Shown: positions 31,963 to 40,173 of the stretch, one piece after another
Numbering within the stretch: the stretch's first letter is position 1
Layout of the letters: the number at the start of each line of letters is the position of its first letter
Source of the DNA: an uncultured Acholeplasmataceae bacterium
GTDB taxonomy: Bacteria > Bacillota_I > Bacilli_A > Acholeplasmatales > Acholeplasmataceae
Direction: 5' to 3'
Assembly (NCBI GenBank): GCA_963544075.1
Contig: CAUUDV010000001.1
Span: 727-64,726, forward strand
DNA: 64,000 nucleotides
The notes under the pieces: generated by a model
What the model was told of the DNA's origin: nothing
The model's database searches: none
What the model saw: only the letters and a program-made list of their open reading frames with translations
Position numbers and translations under genes: made by a program

Positions 31963-33561
31963 ATGAAAAAAATATTATTTTTAATTACCTTAGTTTTATC
32001 TGCTTTTTTAGTAGCGTCTTGTAAAAAAGAACCCCAAAAACCAGCAGATACTCTTGATTTATCTAAACTTGCGGTGCCAAGTGGTCGAGTTGATAAAAAC
32101 TTCGCGCTACCCGCTAAGTTAGGTGACACCGAAATTAGTTATGAAATCACTAAAGGCAAAGTAGCCGCTAAATTATCAGGTCTAGAAGTTCAAATTTACC
32201 GTCAAACTAAAGACGTGGAAGTTGAGTTAACCGCTACAGCCGGTGAACTTACGCATACTTTTTTATTTACTGTTGCTAAACTAGACGCTTCAAAACTTGC
32301 TCAATATCAACAACTTGAAGAAACTTTAAAAAAAGCAGAGTTTACTGCCAAAGCCAAAGAGATTTACGAAAAAATCCCAGTGCTTAGCACCATTATTAAG
32401 TTAATTGAAAACCAAATTTCTAAACTTGGCCTTGATAAAATCAAAGACGGCGAACTTCCAAGTGATGGTGTATTTGGCAAACTTATTTCTCAATTTAAAA
32501 ACGAAAAAGGTGAGTTAGTTTTCCCTGAAAAATTAACTTTAGAAAGCCCAGGTATTCTTGAAAACTACATCGACCTTTACAACACAATTCAAAAAGCCTT
32601 AAAACAACCTGTACCTAAATTACAAAGTTTTGATTTTTCAAAACTACTTAGTCTACTAACTGCAGATGGGATTGCTAAACTAATTGATGATAATTTTGTT
32701 TTCAAAAAAGATGGCAAAGAAGACCCTGAATACAAAAAACAAGTAATTAACTTTATTAAAAGTGAACTTAACCAAAAATCAATTGACTTGCTTTTAAAGC
32801 AAGTACAAGCCTTATTTCCAAAACTGCCAAGCCTTGGTGCTTGGCAAGAAGTTGTAGCGCTTTTTCCTAGTTTTGTTGAACTTGGCAAAAACATCTACGC
32901 TTTGAAGTTAAGTCAAAGTAAACTAAGTAACTTAAAAGACCAAATTAGCGCAGGCAATGTAGTTGAACAAAGTAAAATTGACGCAGAAATTGCTAATTTC
33001 AAAGCAGCGCAAAACGCTTTAAATAAAGCAGTTTTAGCAGTTCAAAAGCTACTTAAACAAGAAAAAATTCAAGATGCACTTAAAGCAGCGTTTGACTCAA
33101 TTGGCAAGTTTTTTCATAACTTTGCCCAAAAAAATATAGATAAAATCCAAGATACAGCAGAAAAAGCCAAAGCCTTTCAACAATATCAAGATAATGTTAA
33201 AGCATTTCAAAATATTCATGAGTTTATTTTGGGCTTAGTTTTAAAAGTTGGAAATAAATCTTACACTACTGAGTTAAGACAAGGTGGCGACAAAAACTTA
33301 TATGAAGCGGTCTCTAAATGGTCTAGATACTTAGTTGACTTTATTTCAAAAGATGGTGCAAACATCCATCCAGCAATTAGTAGTATTTTTTCATTAGTTT
33401 ATGGCCAAGTTTTTGGCGCTAAGACCGGAACTATTGAAAACTACCGTCAACTTTATCAAATTGGCAAATACTTTAAAGACCCGCAAGACGGACAAGACGC
33501 CAAAATTTACACAGACTTAGTTAAACTGCTTGCAGAACTGAAAGCTATGTCTCAAAGATAA
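31963..33561 (+). CDS. Lipoprotein, helical and Lys/Gln-rich, function unknown
   Basis: Signal peptide with lipobox FLVASC. RBS aaaggagag upstream. Confidence 0.75.
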   Translation: MKKILFLITLVLSAFLVASCKKEPQKPADTLDLSKLAVPSGRVDKNFALPAKLGDTEISYEITKGKVAAKLSGLEVQIYRQTKDVEVELTATAGELTHTFLFTVAKLDASKLAQYQQLEETLKKAEFTAKAKEIYEKIPVLSTIIKLIENQISKLGLDKIKDGELPSDGVFGKLISQFKNEKGELVFPEKLTLESPGILENYIDLYNTIQKALKQPVPKLQSFDFSKLLSLLTADGIAKLIDDNFVFKKDGKEDPEYKKQVINFIKSELNQKSIDLLLKQVQALFPKLPSLGAWQEVVALFPSFVELGKNIYALKLSQSKLSNLKDQISAGNVVEQSKIDAEIANFKAAQNALNKAVLAVQKLLKQEKIQDALKAAFDSIGKFFHNFAQKNIDKIQDTAEKAKAFQQYQDNVKAFQNIHEFILGLVLKVGNKSYTTELRQGGDKNLYEAVSKWSRYLVDFISKDGANIHPAISSIFSLVYGQVFGAKTGTIENYRQLYQIGKYFKDPQDGQDAKIYTDLVKLLAELKAMSQR

Positions 33562-33757: not shown

Positions 33758-34656
33758 ATGAATTTTAATATTGAGTCTGGCACAGAATTGATTATAAGAA
33801 AAAAACTCGCTCAATTTATTGAAAAGTATTTTCATTATCTTGGCTACGATTTTAGGCACACTTTATTTAAACAAATTATTTATATGGAAACTGATGTGCA
33901 AACTAAATTAGAAGAGAAAATAAAAAGTTCGTATGACGCCTATTTTTATTTGCTTTGCAATAATCAAAATATTTTTTCTTCTAGTCTATTGAAGAAATTT
34001 TTCTATATCTTAAAAGAAGAAGAACTGTCTGCAGACCTAATTACAAGACTAACCAATTTATTTTTCAAGACTTGTGTTGAAAATTCATTAGAAAACTTAA
34101 TTATTTTTTCACATAAAACCTTTCAAACAATGGTGGAATTAGATACCGAATATAGGTTTTTGATTAGTTTGATGTTTTTAAACTATTCGTTAGTAAAGGT
34201 TGGCATTCCTGCGTTGGTTTTTAATGAAACCGTATTAAAAGAACTAAGTGAATTATATATTTTAGATAGTTCAAATAATTTAGTTTGCTATATTACTAAA
34301 TTCATATTAGAAAGTAAAAAGCAAGATAAATCTTATTATCAAAATTTAAAGAAACTAACTTTTAAAGAAATCTTTCAAACCTTGATGAATGATAAACTTT
34401 TGCTTATTCAATTTGGAGTTAAACATTTGTATATTTTTGGTTCTTTTGCGCAAGGCACCGAAAGACTAGACTCAGATATTGATTTGCTCGCTGAGTTTTC
34501 TTTAGATATAACTAAAGAAAACAAGCAAAAAATAAAGATACTTTAAAACAACTTTATTTTGAAAAATTCAAAAGATTTGTTGATTTGATTGAAGTTGGAC
34601 CGTATTTAAGCGAAAACTTACTAAAAGAAGTAAATAACTGCATAAAGGTATTTTAA
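33758..34656 (+). pseudogene. Two-domain protein (degenerate Fic-like region plus minimal nucleotidyltransferase/MNT domain) interrupted by a frameshift at an A6 run
   Basis: NTase motif LYIFGSFAQGTERLDSDIDLLAEF. The ORF stops at 34546, but the rest of the domain (FVDLIEVGPYLSENLLKEVNNCIKVF) continues in another frame to 34656. One extra A in the run at 34527-34532 would fuse the frames. Confidence 0.6.
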
Positions 34657-34668
34657 AAAGGAGTAAAA

Positions 34669-37600
34669 ATGGCAAACAAAGGACTTAAAGGTTACTGTAA
34701 ATTTTTAACTCATTCCCTTGATAGTTTAGTAAAAACTAATGTCAATATCAACAAGAACGACGCTAATTTTCACATTATTATTCCCTTAATTGAAAATGTT
34801 GGAAGCGGCCCAATTAAAACTAGTTTAATCTACAATCACCAAAACAAAGACGAAAAAGATTTCTTTGGCAAAGGCTTTAAACTAAATTATTTTACTAAGA
34901 TTCAAAGTACTGAAGGCAAAATTTCTGTTTTTAACGCAGATGGCTCTGTTGATGAGTATCTAAAACCTGATTTTAAAAATCCAGAGACTCAAGCAGAAGT
35001 ACATAACTTTTCCGATGAATATCTTTTAAAGTCAGGTTTTGAAATTAAAGATAAATACGGAAATAAAACAATTTTTGAAGAACCAATTAGCATTAACTAT
35101 CCTAGTGAAATGATAGGAATAAACGGCGAGAGGCTTCTTTTTGATTTTGTAGACGTTGAAAAAAGAATTGTAAATAAGTATGGTGGCAAAATAATTTTTA
35201 AAAAAACTAGCGACTTTATTTCTGAAGTTGCTTACTTTCAGGACGATAAAAAAGTTTATTTTGCAACTCTTGAGTATGAAAATAGCAAGTTAACAAAAGT
35301 TACACACAAACAAAATAACACAATAATTTCTGAGTTAAAAATTATTTACCTTGACAATCAAATCACGCTTTTTAACGCGATTTCAAAACGTGGTCTTGTT
35401 TACAGATTTGTAGACGCCAAAGTAGTTGAATTTGCTGAAGTTTTTGGCGATTCCTTAACTGAAAGAAACAAAAACACAATAACATACGAAGACAGAAAAA
35501 CTACCATAACTAATTTAGCAAACCCTGCAAAACCAGAGCAAAGTTATGTGTTTTTTGACGATAAAGATTTTCCGCTTTTTGAATTTGACAGTCAAATGAA
35601 CGCAGTTGAAACTGAATACCACCACGAAACCAAACAACTGCTTTCCAAAAGCACACCTGTTTCTGTTTTAGACCAAAAAAATAATTTATTTAAGTCTGCT
35701 ATTGCTGATTTTGCCAAAAACGGAGTTGATGTTCAGAAAGTAGATTTAAAACCTGGTTTTTTAAAAAACTTCTTAAAGGATAGCGTTTATCTTGTAAAAA
35801 CTACCGGAGACAGCGGTAGTTTAACTTTTAATATTCCGGTTAGTGGCATCGCAACTGACGAAATTTTTGTAGCGATCTGGGGTAGACAATTAACGCCAAA
35901 AACAGATAAATCAAAGGTTGAAGTAAGACTGGCCGCTGGTGGCGAAGACAACGATGTATTTAAAAAAGAAATGATAGACGAAAACTTTGACTTAATGACT
36001 CTAGGAGTTTCTGCTACTAAAACTTTTGATTCAATTGAATTGAGCGTGTTGTTTACAGGAAACGCTTCAATTGAGATTGGTGGAATTCAAGTATTTAAAA
36101 AAGCATTTGGTGCTTTTTATGCATACGACAAGTCTGGCAACCCCAAAGATATTTTAAGTGGCTCTATTGGCGTCCAAGTTAAACACAATGCAAATAATTT
36201 TCCAGAAAGTGTCACAAGCCCAGAAGGAGCTGCGACTAAATACTACTACAACAAAGAAGGCAATGTTGCTTTAGTTAAATACCCCTATGGTGTGTTTTTA
36301 AAAAACAAATATTGTGATTTTCATAAATCTAATGTATTGTCTACAACAGTTTCTTCAGCAGATGGTGAAAACATTTTAAAAGTTGAAAAAAACTGGACTA
36401 AAGACGGCAGGATGTTAATCGGAGAAATAGATGAACTGCAAAATAAAAAAACTTTTGAATACGACAGTTTAGGCAGAATCACCAAAGCGGTAAACTCACT
36501 TGGTGTAGTTTCTTTAACTGAATACAACGAAGACAGCACGATTAAAAACTTTAAAACCACTTTAAATAATTTATCTGCGCACGCGGTATACGAATACAAT
36601 GAAAAGCAAGATTTAATTAAAATAAAGTTAAAAAATGGCTCAGAATATGAGTTTAAATATGATGATTTAGGCAATATCTCACAAATTTTAATAAATAAAA
36701 CCCCAATATTTATCTACGAATACTCGCCAATTTTAAATAGTTTATTAAGCATCAAATTTGGAACAAAAGGAGATGCTTACTTGTTTGAATACAATTCAGA
36801 CAATTTACTATACTCACTTTACTACCAAAAAGATAATAAAAAGTCTTTAAGATTTAAATATCAATACAACGAAGAAGGCCAAATTATTGCGGTTTTTGAC
36901 AAAAACAGTGCAAAGATTAAAGAGTTTTTTTACGACGAAGACGGTGAAATTATAAAAATCCAAAATCCAGGTATAGAAATCAACAAGTCACACGATAATT
37001 TAGGTAATGTTAACCGTAAATCAATTACTGTAGATAAACATAATTTAAATTTTGCATACGACACAGTTGAACGCTCCAAAGGTTCTTACCCTGAAACTAT
37101 TGTTGAGGCGTTTGCGGGTGAAAGATCATATATTGGTATTTTTAGTGATGATTCTAACTTAACCAATAAAAAAGGCAATTTACTTAAATCAATTGAACAC
37201 AAGGACGAAAAACCTATTGAACTAGACACTTATCTAGAAGGCATAATTCCTTATGTTAAATTAGATAACAAAAAAATGCTTAGCTACAAATTAGATATGC
37301 CAAGTCCTTTTTCTTTAGAAAACGGCGGTATTCAGTTTTGGTTTAAACAAACTGAATACGGAAATTACTATCAATGTCTGTTTAGTTGTAAAGACAACGA
37401 TGCTTACGACAGCATTGGACTATACTTGCAATACGGCAAAATCACTTTAAAGGTAGTTGATTTCGCCGGAAAGACACTCGATATTTTAACTAGTGATTTT
37501 TCAATAAAAGAAAAAGAGTGGAACTTTGTTGCGCTTTCTTTTTTCAATAGAGCAGACGGACAAGGGTATTCTGAAGTTTCTGAGTTCGCTTTTTCTTTAA

Positions 37601-40173
37601 ATGGGCATACTCAAGTTTATCAGCAAGCAGACCCAAGAATAAACTTTGACCTTGGTGCTGATTTAGTTTACAACATTGGCCACGAATATAACGGCAAAAG
37701 TAGCTATTACCACTTCTACGGGCAAGTTACTTGTCTGTATATTGCTGGAAAGACCTATATTGACGTACCAGAAATTAAAAGATATTACCGTGCTACTAAG
37801 GATTATTTGATTGACAATCAATTAGTAGATGCAGAGACCCGAACTGTTGATTTCAGTCAAACTACTTACTTTAACATCACTCAACAAAACTTAAAAGATT
37901 TTGAAATTTTCCCACTGCAAAACTCAGTAACTTCGTTAACTAGCCAAAAACCTAGTCATTTTAGCACAAGAAACGTTTCAAATTACGACAAAGACCGCAC
38001 ATTTAACTTCAACAACATAAGTAAAAGATACGCATTTGTGGCAGACGGCAACGAGTTGGTTTATGACTTTCTGACTAACGGAACTGGAACTATTTCATTT
38101 AGAGCGTTTTCAGACACTAGAGAAGACATGCAATATTTATTTGAAGCAATTGACGAAAGAAATCAAAAAATTGCTTTATTTAAAAACAAAGACGCTAAGT
38201 TAGTTATAAAATACGGAAGTGAAACTAAAGAAACTAATTTAATGTTTTCTTGCAATTCTTGGCATTTTGTTGCGCTTTCTTTCACAGAAGTAAATGAAGG
38301 CAATGGATACGGGTTTACTCAATCTACTTCTTTTAGACTAATTCTTGACGATAGTGAGTATATTTGGATTTCTAGTCAATCTGGACTAGGCAACAACTTA
38401 AAGTTATCAGTTGGCAGAAAATTAACTTCAGATTATAGCTCTTATAATTTAGGCTATCTAGCCGATTGTATGGAATTGCAAGGCCAAATCGAGATGCTTG
38501 CTTTCAGAGCTGCTTTTTGTGAAAAGAAAACTCTTGAAGCACTTAAAAAAGAAATTGTCGGTATTTCTCAAAACAAACAGTTTGATACACTTGGCATGCT
38601 TAGAAACATTGTTTTACATAAAGCTGGTAAAAACATTATGTCTACCACTTTTGATTACAAAAGAAGAGAAAATGACCATAAATATATCTCTAAGCAAATT
38701 TCAAATGAACTGCACCGTTTCAAACATTCCACTGAACTTAGCCGCACATACGAGACCGATGTACTAGGCAATGTCTTGTCAATTGAAGACAACATTTTTA
38801 AAAATCACACATACAGGTATGATTTTCGCGGATTTTTGTCAAAAGACGATGATAAAACTATCCAGTATGACGGCAACGGAAATATTTTAAAATATGGTGA
38901 TACTACTTATCAATACTCAAGTCAGATTAAGGACTTGCTTGTTAAGGTAAATGGCAGCGAAATTTTTTACGACGATAAAAACATTTTTAACCCTAAGTCA
39001 TATAAAGGCAATCAATATTTATTTGAAGGCAGAAGATTAGTTGAGTTTACGGATAGCGATGACAATACTTTTACTTATGAATATGACGATAAAGGTCTTA
39101 GAATTAAAAAAATCACACCAGACGAAACAATTTACTACTACTATGATGACGATAAATTAGTTTCACAAATTTCAGACAGTTACAGACTAGACTTTTTGTA
39201 TGATGAAGATAATCTACTTTATGGATTTATTTTAGACAAAACAAAAAATTATTTTTATCTAAAAGATAGTCTACAAAATATTTTAGGTATAGTTGATGAA
39301 AACGGCGAAAGAATAGTGGGATACGAAAGTAACGCTTATGGTGATACTTATGTTTATTTTGATAATTCTGCAAATAATCTCGCTCAAATCAACCCATTTA
39401 GATACAAAGGATACTATTTTGACGAAGAAAGTCAAATGTATTACTGCACAACCAGGTACTATGTACCTGAGTGGTGTAGATGGCTAAACATTGACAACCC
39501 TTTATTTGTAGAAAACGAATATTCATCTACCAACAACTTATTTTGCTACTGTAAAAATAACCCTGTTAATTACATTGATAAAGATGGTCAACTATTTTTA
39601 AGTGCAATAATAATTGGCGCGATTATCGGAGCTGCTGCTGGCGTTGGATATAGTTGTTATAAACAAAAATCCGAAAATGGCACAATAAATTGGAAGAAAG
39701 CGCTTCTCGCAGGTGCTTTAGGTGCAGTTAGTGGTGTTGCTGCAACTTCTGGAATTGGCACATTCGCTTCAGCAATGATAGGTGGCGCTACCAGTTTTGT
39801 AGGAAGTATCGGTGATGATTTAATTGATAATGGTGGCGATTTTTACAAGGTAAACTACAAATCAGCAGCAATTTCTGGAATTATAGGAGCAGGAATGGCA
39901 GGAATAGCATCATATGTTAGTGATCAAGCGAATGTTTTAAAAGACAAAATTGCTAGCAAATTAAGCAATATTTTAACAAAAAATATTCAAAATAGTGCTG
40001 TTGGTAAAATTAGCGCCAAAGGTGTGCAAGGGATAACTAATTCATTCGGTAAATCATTTACTAAAGCTATTAAAAAAGTACTTCCTGGCCCAATTGCAAG
40101 GAAAGCGTTGCTAAATAGTGCCATTGATCAAATTTTTAATTTTGCTTCTGAATTTTTAAAAGGTTTTATTTAA
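34669..40173 (+). CDS. Rhs/YD-repeat polymorphic toxin with two LamG/ConA-like inserts and a glycine-zipper membrane-type C-terminal domain
   Basis: 1834 aa with many YD repeats (FEYDSLGRIT, FKYDDLGNIS, YQYNEEGQII, FFYDEDGEII, YEYDDKGLRI). Rhs core end NPFRYKGYYFDEESQMYYCTTRYYVPEWCRWLNIDNP...NNPVNYIDKDGQ, followed by a divergent tail of about 190 aa. RBS aaaggag. Confidence 0.9.
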   Translation: MANKGLKGYCKFLTHSLDSLVKTNVNINKNDANFHIIIPLIENVGSGPIKTSLIYNHQNKDEKDFFGKGFKLNYFTKIQSTEGKISVFNADGSVDEYLKPDFKNPETQAEVHNFSDEYLLKSGFEIKDKYGNKTIFEEPISINYPSEMIGINGERLLFDFVDVEKRIVNKYGGKIIFKKTSDFISEVAYFQDDKKVYFATLEYENSKLTKVTHKQNNTIISELKIIYLDNQITLFNAISKRGLVYRFVDAKVVEFAEVFGDSLTERNKNTITYEDRKTTITNLANPAKPEQSYVFFDDKDFPLFEFDSQMNAVETEYHHETKQLLSKSTPVSVLDQKNNLFKSAIADFAKNGVDVQKVDLKPGFLKNFLKDSVYLVKTTGDSGSLTFNIPVSGIATDEIFVAIWGRQLTPKTDKSKVEVRLAAGGEDNDVFKKEMIDENFDLMTLGVSATKTFDSIELSVLFTGNASIEIGGIQVFKKAFGAFYAYDKSGNPKDILSGSIGVQVKHNANNFPESVTSPEGAATKYYYNKEGNVALVKYPYGVFLKNKYCDFHKSNVLSTTVSSADGENILKVEKNWTKDGRMLIGEIDELQNKKTFEYDSLGRITKAVNSLGVVSLTEYNEDSTIKNFKTTLNNLSAHAVYEYNEKQDLIKIKLKNGSEYEFKYDDLGNISQILINKTPIFIYEYSPILNSLLSIKFGTKGDAYLFEYNSDNLLYSLYYQKDNKKSLRFKYQYNEEGQIIAVFDKNSAKIKEFFYDEDGEIIKIQNPGIEINKSHDNLGNVNRKSITVDKHNLNFAYDTVERSKGSYPETIVEAFAGERSYIGIFSDDSNLTNKKGNLLKSIEHKDEKPIELDTYLEGIIPYVKLDNKKMLSYKLDMPSPFSLENGGIQFWFKQTEYGNYYQCLFSCKDNDAYDSIGLYLQYGKITLKVVDFAGKTLDILTSDFSIKEKEWNFVALSFFNRADGQGYSEVSEFAFSLNGHTQVYQQADPRINFDLGADLVYNIGHEYNGKSSYYHFYGQVTCLYIAGKTYIDVPEIKRYYRATKDYLIDNQLVDAETRTVDFSQTTYFNITQQNLKDFEIFPLQNSVTSLTSQKPSHFSTRNVSNYDKDRTFNFNNISKRYAFVADGNELVYDFLTNGTGTISFRAFSDTREDMQYLFEAIDERNQKIALFKNKDAKLVIKYGSETKETNLMFSCNSWHFVALSFTEVNEGNGYGFTQSTSFRLILDDSEYIWISSQSGLGNNLKLSVGRKLTSDYSSYNLGYLADCMELQGQIEMLAFRAAFCEKKTLEALKKEIVGISQNKQFDTLGMLRNIVLHKAGKNIMSTTFDYKRRENDHKYISKQISNELHRFKHSTELSRTYETDVLGNVLSIEDNIFKNHTYRYDFRGFLSKDDDKTIQYDGNGNILKYGDTTYQYSSQIKDLLVKVNGSEIFYDDKNIFNPKSYKGNQYLFEGRRLVEFTDSDDNTFTYEYDDKGLRIKKITPDETIYYYYDDDKLVSQISDSYRLDFLYDEDNLLYGFILDKTKNYFYLKDSLQNILGIVDENGERIVGYESNAYGDTYVYFDNSANNLAQINPFRYKGYYFDEESQMYYCTTRYYVPEWCRWLNIDNPLFVENEYSSTNNLFCYCKNNPVNYIDKDGQLFLSAIIIGAIIGAAAGVGYSCYKQKSENGTINWKKALLAGALGAVSGVAATSGIGTFASAMIGGATSFVGSIGDDLIDNGGDFYKVNYKSAAISGIIGAGMAGIASYVSDQANVLKDKIASKLSNILTKNIQNSAVGKISAKGVQGITNSFGKSFTKAIKKVLPGPIARKALLNSAIDQIFNFASEFLKGFI

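Follow-up and report, generated by a model that had tools for sequence, protein, structure and literature searches.

What kind of payload sits at the C terminus of the Rhs protein encoded in a 64,000-nucleotide stretch of DNA from an uncultured Acholeplasmataceae bacterium (GenBank assembly GCA_963544075.1, contig CAUUDV010000001.1; the whole stretch is called the window below)? The original prediction, made from the sequence, had been that the tail encoded at 39592-40173 is a glycine-zipper, membrane-targeting payload rather than an enzyme. Our computational analysis upheld that view, in that the tail is a modular Rhs domain that is all-helical and membrane-like, contains conserved GxxxG motifs, and has no enzyme match. 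By analogy with characterized toxins, we consider it probable that the tail is a membrane-inserting toxin that is shielded in an Rhs cocoon, released autoproteolytically, oligomerized through GxxxG faces, and able to depolarize its target, and that the producer is guarded by an adjacent polytopic membrane protein. The reading is built on our observations of the anatomy of the tail, its conservation across a family, its modularity, its co-divergence with the next gene, and the absence of enzyme signatures; that the tail is cut free, inserts, and forms a channel, and that the immunity protein binds it, would follow from the comparison with known systems.

The region 34669..40173 of the + strand is a single unbroken open reading frame (ORF) for an 1834-amino-acid Rhs protein. 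Nucleotides 39592-40173 translate in frame with it as residues 1642-1834, a 193-amino-acid C-terminal tail that follows "...NNPVNYIDKDGQ", so the earlier placement of the tail directly after DKDGQ and its quoted translation were both right. The TIGR03696 match stops at residue 1641, the end of DKDGQ, and the tail therefore starts at L1642, which is nucleotide 39592. It consists of two parts, the first delimited by hydropathy, alignment, AlphaFold2, and hhalign:

39592..39921, + strand: conserved core of the toxin tail, tail residues 1-110, with four uncharged Gly/Ala/Ser-rich helices
39922..40173, + strand: variable Lys-rich part of the tail, residues 111-193 plus the stop codon, predicted to form three helices, of which two are cationic and strongly amphipathic

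With residues numbered from the start of the tail, the core helices span residues 2-29 (H1, which contains G9xxxG13xxxG17xxxS21), 34-52 (H2, with G44xxxG48), 57-79 (H3), and 89-111 (H4). By hydropathy, residues 1-23 form the sole strong transmembrane (TM)-type segment (Kyte-Doolittle value [KD] of 2.9), and moderately hydrophobic Gly/Ala/Ser-rich segments are located at approximately residues 37-52, 55-75, and 92-109. The 1834-residue protein has no hydrophobic segment elsewhere, and the region before residue 1642 contains none. Glycine-zipper patterns of the type defined by Kim et al. start at tail residues 5, 9, 13, 40, and 44, and a ladder of small-xxx-small spacings climbs through nine rungs from A40 to S72. 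In an alignment of 43 family sequences, G13 and G44 never vary and G9 and G48 are retained in at least 90%; the ladder positions hold small residues in 72-100% of the relatives, and charged residues are essentially absent from the four core helices. Because G13 and G44 are invariant, G9 and G48 are nearly so, and the helices are uncharged family-wide, we conclude that the zipper motif is under selection. The tail thus has four of the three to four hydrophobic Gly/Ala-rich helices that had been anticipated, and its zipper motif is conserved in relatives and lies within a hydrophobic helix, the features by which glycine-zipper membrane toxins are recognized.

The Lys-rich amphipathic end described in the original prediction was also recovered. 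The helix at tail residues 119-136 has a hydrophobic moment of 0.49 and a net charge of +3, the corresponding values for residues 142-163 are 0.57 and +5, and at most 0.7% of shuffled sequences attained these moments. This C-terminal part (residues 111-193) is the most divergent portion of the toxin and is poorly conserved across the family. When supplied with the family alignment, AlphaFold2 modeled the tail as an all-alpha structure of seven helices, with a predicted local distance difference test score (pLDDT) of 73.8 and a predicted template modeling score of 0.52. The core proved to be a tandem internal duplication: residues 9-51 (39616-39744) matched residues 60-106 (39769-39909) with an hhalign probability of 97% and an E value of 4.5e-11, and each unit comprises a helix, a polar loop, the sequence (I/V)N(W/Y), and a second helix.

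Neither the tail nor any of 105 relatives matched an enzymatic family in Pfam or NCBIfam, and the domain is covered by no model in these collections; the Pfam scan of the relatives returned Rhs-type families and isolated sub-threshold matches only. A Foldseek search of the AlphaFold2 tail model against PDB and BFVD yielded nothing below an E value of 0.3. The best weak matches were four-TM bundles of the NDUFA11/Tim22 type (not significant, E values of at least 1.9) and a phage holin, and none of the listed matches spans an enzyme catalytic domain. The tail therefore has neither the enzymatic family nor the fold match of a soluble enzymatic Rhs toxin, in agreement with the earlier statement that no enzyme motifs are visible. 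The ten-helix globin-like bundle of colicin-type pore domains was likewise absent from the PDB profile and Foldseek matches of the tail. Six weak matches were obtained when the family profile was compared to PDB sequences, and the two relevant ones were a glycine-zipper segment of an OmpA-family protein (6x65_N, E value of 0.006) and a fragment of Tse5 (8cp6_C, E value of 0.028).

The tail belongs to a sizable group of sequences. An exhaustive phmmer search identified relatives in 102 representative clusters (E values of 1e-3 or less), and in 82 of the 82 relatives inspected the domain follows the Rhs core motif NNPV...D(P)xG-x. Most of these are fused directly to NNPV..D(P)xG, and the remainder have one extra hydrophobic helix between motif and domain; in P0037, P0043, P0048, P0055, P0058, P0062, and P0068 the helix between the cleavage motif and the conserved domain is very hydrophobic and rich in Ala and Val. 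A third, profile-based homolog search added further Rhs-fused members only, with no LXG, CdiA, or other carriers. As judged by sequence, the tail is an uncatalogued Rhs C-terminal family. Orphan modules made up of an Rhs core fragment, the tail, and a small multi-TM ORF are present in other genomes (loci L002 and L003), and such a layout of core fragment, tail, and small ORF is typical of Rhs toxin/immunity arrays. A second orphan core fragment with a tail is found in L002 (10643-11738); here the tail is hydrophobic, Gly-rich, and multi-helical but differs in sequence, being only weakly similar to the window family, and a 143-amino-acid ORF with two TM segments comes next. It seems that Gly-rich membrane tails are a recurring type of Rhs payload in the metagenomes sampled.

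A polytopic membrane immunity protein had been suggested as the partner of a membrane-targeting payload, and a candidate with these properties lies directly downstream:

40175..40771, + strand: candidate immunity protein of 198 amino acids, a polytopic (three to four TM) membrane protein, recognized by adjacency, TM segments, and co-divergence

Its ATG, a coupled start codon, is located 1 nucleotide past the Rhs stop codon (junction TAA-T-ATG). The protein has three to four hydrophobic TM segments and two conserved polar motifs, GRLLKENLFFKEN and KKILETNPHFF. No curated family in Pfam or NCBIfam was matched, with DUF3667 appearing below threshold only, and a single-sequence AlphaFold2 model was of low confidence (pLDDT of 61). 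A locus search made with a single protein reached Acholeplasmataceae only. We examined 20 Acholeplasmataceae loci, measuring identities against the window copy, and a homolog of the 198-amino-acid protein was found directly 3' of the tail in all 19 that reach far enough. The N terminus, middle, and last 300 residues of the Rhs protein are 88-94% identical to those of the window copy, apart from 79% for the last 300 residues of a truncated copy (L023). Identity falls to 65-82% in the N-terminal half of the tail, to 48-66% in its C-terminal half, and to 40-52% in the downstream protein, which co-varies with the tail; these tail and immunity ranges are for 18 loci and omit two near-identical ones (L004 and L005). 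A conserved core followed by a variable C-terminal domain and a co-varying downstream immunity gene is the arrangement of a polymorphic toxin.

The carrier upstream of the tail could be assigned with the aid of Pfam and TIGR models and matches to solved shells:

34669..39591, + strand: Rhs N-terminal region, YD-repeat shell, and C-terminal plug, residues 1-1641
39493..39591, + strand: degenerate aspartyl-protease/cleavage motif of the Rhs plug, consisting of D1609 (RWLNID-NPL), 24 residues, and D1637-KDG-Q1641

The body of the protein matched RHS_repeat (PF05593, 1.8e-19), TIGR01643, and, over residues 1557-1641, TIGR03696 (3e-16), together with the solved Rhs shells 8h8a, 8cp6_B (Tse5), 7q97, and 7pq5. 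The 1834-residue protein thus combines the YD/RHS repeat shell and the Rhs-associated core of Rhs/YD-repeat polymorphic toxins. Relative to the consensus DPxG-x18-DPxG, the plug motif retains both aspartates (D1609 and D1637) in the degenerate form DNPL...DKDG, with a 24-residue spacing like that of other low-GC relatives. When aligned with 50 family members, the second Asp was invariant (52 of 52) and the Asp of RF..xD was conserved. Tse5 needs D1141 and D1164 and is cut at L1168|I1169, directly after DPxGL (PMC10684867). Since D1609 and D1637 are both conserved, a cut site after Q1641 is predicted by analogy with Tse5. The first 480 residues of the protein (34669-36108) matched nothing in Pfam, contain no signal peptide, and may be an uncharacterized trafficking or plug region; two low-GC Rhs relatives (P0018 and P0022) resemble the N-terminal ~50 residues. 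LamG/ConA-like domains considered for the middle of the protein were dropped, as Pfam gives none for the window protein and Laminin_G_3 in one relative only.

The closest functional parallel is the C-terminal domain of Tse5 (PA2684) of Pseudomonas aeruginosa (Tse5-CT), an Rhs tail that is pore-forming, ion-selective, and depolarizing and is neutralized by the membrane protein Tsi5 (PMC9637101, PMC10684867); the earlier mention of a pore-forming Tse5 domain was accurate. Tse5 and the window protein share the Rhs cocoon, the two Asp residues of the plug motif (degenerate in the window protein), and cleavage (predicted for the window protein) right after D-x-x-G-x. Both tails are ~150-190 amino acids long, lack an enzymatic motif, and are encoded next to a TM immunity protein, and in both a Gly/Ala helix is followed by "(D)INWK", a second Gly/Ala helix, and a Lys/Ala-rich basic helix. 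The family profile scored 17.6 bits against Tse5-CT (the PDB match with an E value of 0.028), a score reached by 0 of 2000 global and 1 of 2000 local shuffles of Tse5-CT. In the reverse comparison, 37% of family members scored above the 95th percentile of the shuffles with a Tse5-family hidden Markov model (HMM), the maximum being 18.5 bits; the Tse5-CT family alignment was thin (four sequences), and Tse5-CT itself was reassembled from database fragments. The two systems differ in several respects. Sequence likeness is limited to motifs, the window tail has a duplicated hairpin with four helices whereas Tse5-CT appears to have one unit, and neither a PAAR-like N terminus, VgrG, nor a type VI secretion system (T6SS) was detected for the window protein, whose host is a wall-less Mollicute. 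The immunity candidate has three to four TM segments compared to two in Tsi5, and shows no detected likeness to a named family.

Glycine zippers are also found in toxins with other carriers. The LXG toxins of the Gram-positive type VII secretion system (T7SS), TelE of S. gallolyticus and EsxX and TspA of S. aureus, have C-terminal polymorphic domains defined by an extended (G/A/S)xxxGxxxG zipper within a hydrophobic helix, as does the window tail, a likeness drawn from their descriptions. TelE, EsxX, and TspA depolarize membranes, EsxX (with ExiCD) and TspA (with TsaI) are paired with polytopic membrane immunity proteins, and for channel-forming effectors the immunity protein is almost always of this type (PMC12744356). 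Unlike these toxins, the window protein has an Rhs cocoon in place of the LXG helical shaft, the window contains no LXG or Lap genes, and no soluble, cytoplasmic DUF5085-type immunity protein was seen at the locus; with an Rhs cocoon, soluble cytoplasmic immunity would be unnecessary. The CdiA-CT ionophores of the EC93 group and the pore-forming colicins are delivered by contact or through a receptor, are helical, dissipate the proton-motive force, have small membrane immunity proteins, and in some cases contain a putative glycine zipper (PMC11630599), but their carriers are CdiA and colicin, and the PDB searches matched the tail to colicin-type pore domains neither by sequence nor by fold. 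The Gly-zipper_Omp (PF13488), Rick_17kDa_Anti (PF05433), and related Pfam glycine-zipper families resemble the tail in the composition of their Gly-x3-Gly-rich helical hairpins; they are lipoprotein or outer-membrane segments rather than Rhs payloads, and PF05433 matched 1 of 105 family members at an E value of 0.009, with none of the 105 reaching the gathering threshold. In kind, the proposed system is already known, being an Rhs-delivered membrane-depolarizing toxin with membrane immunity and a glycine-zipper toxin; what is new is the uncatalogued family, its duplicated architecture, and its occurrence in a Mollicute with no known delivery route.

From these parallels we envision the following course of events. 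The YD-repeat shell would enclose the hydrophobic tail and keep it off the producer's own membrane, as the structures of Tse5, RhsA, and Rhs1 suggest, and the plug aspartates D1609 and D1637 would cut the chain after Q1641. Upon release at the target membrane, the two cationic amphipathic helices would dock on anionic lipid head groups, after which the four Gly/Ala/Ser-rich helices would insert. The GxxxG faces (G9/G13 and G44/G48) would pack the helices tightly and allow them to oligomerize into an ion-conducting channel that would dissipate the membrane potential, by analogy with Tse5-CT, TelE, and EsxX. In the producer membrane, the co-transcribed 198-amino-acid protein would bind the tail and block assembly, and the rapid co-divergence of the adjacent tail and immunity genes would set strain specificity.

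Several results weigh against this reading. Helices H2-H4 are of moderate hydrophobicity (KD of 1.3-1.6), and zipper spacing in the window tail alone barely exceeds that expected of a Gly/Ala-rich composition (shuffle P of ~0.06). The Rhs protein has no signal peptide, no TM segment before residue 1642, and no PAAR or LXG domain according to Pfam and hydropathy, and thus lacks the trafficking elements (PAAR/T6SS, LXG/T7SS, or a Sec signal) of Rhs toxins, while no secretion system, including T6SS/VgrG and T7SS/LXG/Lap, was found among the window genes. Decayed copies at several sister loci suggest that the system is not always maintained. With regard to Tse5, the window tail scored just 5.5 bits with the Tse5-family HMM, and hhalign gave a probability of 9-16% for the family against the four-sequence Tse5-CT alignment. 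Remote homology searching, proposed earlier as a check, did turn up weak membrane and glycine-zipper matches that include Tse5-CT, but it did not establish homology to a proven pore former. Furthermore, the single INW unit of Tse5 aligns to either repeat copy of the tail core. In view of the profile-profile result and this placement on either unit, the tail was not assigned to the Tse5-CT family, and homology between the two is possible on the basis of their sequences.

A further point against the reading is that a family-wide conserved N-terminal half joined to a variable C-terminal half is also compatible with an entry module attached to a separate toxin. According to this alternative, which we regard as unlikely, the Gly-rich four-helix core (residues 1-110) is a translocation or entry device, and toxicity resides in the variable C-terminal ~80 residues, whose target is cytoplasmic or membrane-associated. 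The N-terminal half is indeed conserved over ~100 clusters, the C-terminal half differs by subfamily and evolves the fastest, and there are precedents in Tde1, whose glycine zipper is required for translocation into prey (PMC10240207), and in CdiA-CT ionophores with separate entry and toxin domains (PMC11630599). The C-terminal half is just 83 residues long, however, with three predicted helices rich in Lys, Ala, and Ser and with no conserved catalytic-type residues or family match, and the immunity candidate is a polytopic membrane protein rather than the soluble inhibitor usual for cytoplasmic enzymes (PMC12744356). In addition, hydrophobic helices likewise precede a basic helix in Tse5-CT, which is itself the pore former (PMC9637101).

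It is quite improbable, in our estimation, that the tail forms no discrete oligomeric pore and instead disturbs the membrane by binding and blocking a particular protein of the membrane or a lipid-linked process, with a transporter, a respiratory or ATPase component, or a lipid carrier as conceivable targets. The polar loop motifs (Q25, NG..INW, and SVGxDLI..GD..VNW) are conserved beyond the needs of a simple zipper peptide, the moderate hydrophobicity is like that of subunits of membrane complexes, and the best weak Foldseek matches are of the NDUFA11/Tim22 type. Those matches are not significant, no target can be named, and known Gly-zipper toxins with membrane immunity proteins form channels (PMC9637101, PMC12744356). 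It is highly improbable that the tail is a non-toxic anchor by which the Rhs shell, perhaps serving as an adhesin, is held at the Acholeplasma membrane. The first tail helix is a strong TM segment, there is no wall for attaching surface proteins, and the Rhs protein has no signal peptide. An anchor, however, would not be expected to diverge sharply past the cleavage motif jointly with the next gene or to occur in orphan modules of core fragment, tail, and TM ORF, nor would it be expected to retain the two catalytic Asp residues of the predicted release protease, and tail anchoring would leave the 1641-residue shell in the cytoplasm. We thus retain the membrane-inserting toxin as the probable function.

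The toxin and immunity genes are part of a larger cassette, which begins with the gene directly 5' of Rhs, assigned from NTP_transf_2 and Polbeta matches in Pfam:

33758..34656, + strand: protein with a C-terminal MNT-type nucleotidyltransferase (NTase) domain

This gene directly precedes Rhs, with 84-90% identity, in every locus with upstream sequence. Because it is always located 5' of Rhs and is so at two or more genomic positions, including both cassette copies of a given metagenome-assembled genome (MAG), we consider it to belong to a three-gene cassette. The window copy is frameshifted in an A-run at ~34520-34546, such that the ORF ends at 34546 and its last ~37 codons are read in a different frame as far as 34656; the intact genes of L001 and L004 served as the reference. 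Further upstream, 31963-33561 (+ strand) encodes a 532-amino-acid protein that carries a lipoprotein signal, MKKILFLITLVLSAFLVASC, and matches no family; it is a probable Mollicute surface lipoprotein. Its gene was found only in loci at the genomic position of the window and is therefore placed outside the cassette. The flanking genes are of the housekeeping type and encode prolyl-tRNA synthetase, FtsK, signal peptidase, a YlqF-type GTPase, and topoisomerase I, then a P-type ATPase, NusA, and IF2.

The window holds no second copy of the tail or immunity gene. Two Rhs-tail-immunity cassettes at different genomic positions were seen in the MAGs with loci L006/L007, L009/L017, L015/L019, L008/L012, and L014/L023. 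In these MAGs one cassette adjoins a P-type ATPase gene, as in the window, the other adjoins an ABC transporter gene, and the two carry different alleles of the tail and of the immunity gene. Some copies are broken. At 8001-9460 of L001/L006 the Rhs ORF is split (1530 and 312 amino acids) and the immunity gene is broken into three, the immunity gene is also split in L014 (5728-6317) and L018 (8596-9188), and Rhs is truncated in L023 (1584-3455). These decayed copies may reflect pseudogenization or assembly errors.

The nearest genome records (96% identity) are uncultured Acholeplasmataceae MAGs, and the window has long ORFs under genetic code 11 and a G+C content of 30-40%. As a member of the Acholeplasmataceae, the host is a wall-less Mollicute. 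Among the papers searched, none links Rhs with Acholeplasma. The original prediction had added that a membrane-targeting payload would suit wall-less target cells. The idea is plausible but speculative and not specific, for most relatives carry the domain behind an Rhs core motif that differs from that of the Acholeplasmataceae.

A more far-reaching picture, which we find doubtful, is that of a self-contained three-gene Rhs weapon (NTase-domain protein, cocoon, and membrane immunity protein) that leaves the cell and is delivered with no known secretion system, docks on the naked membranes of wall-less neighbors, and releases a channel former built of duplicated glycine-zipper hairpins; in this picture the tail would be a deep, unrecognized relative of Tse5-CT and the NTase a new Rhs accessory factor. 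To our knowledge, Tse5 is the sole Rhs-delivered pore former to be characterized, and we know of no relatives outside Pseudomonas-type T6SS loci. If the deep kinship with Tse5-CT were true, Tse5-like Rhs pore toxins would reach beyond the Gram-negative T6SS into Gram-positive and Mollicute lineages. A family of ~100 clusters is now defined by its invariant glycines, its internal duplication, and its putative cognate membrane immunity family, and a Pfam-type model of it is feasible. For the Mollicutes, the analysis documents multi-copy, actively diversifying putative Rhs toxin/immunity cassettes, with a 200-kDa cocoon, in bacteria that are wall-less and bounded by a single membrane.

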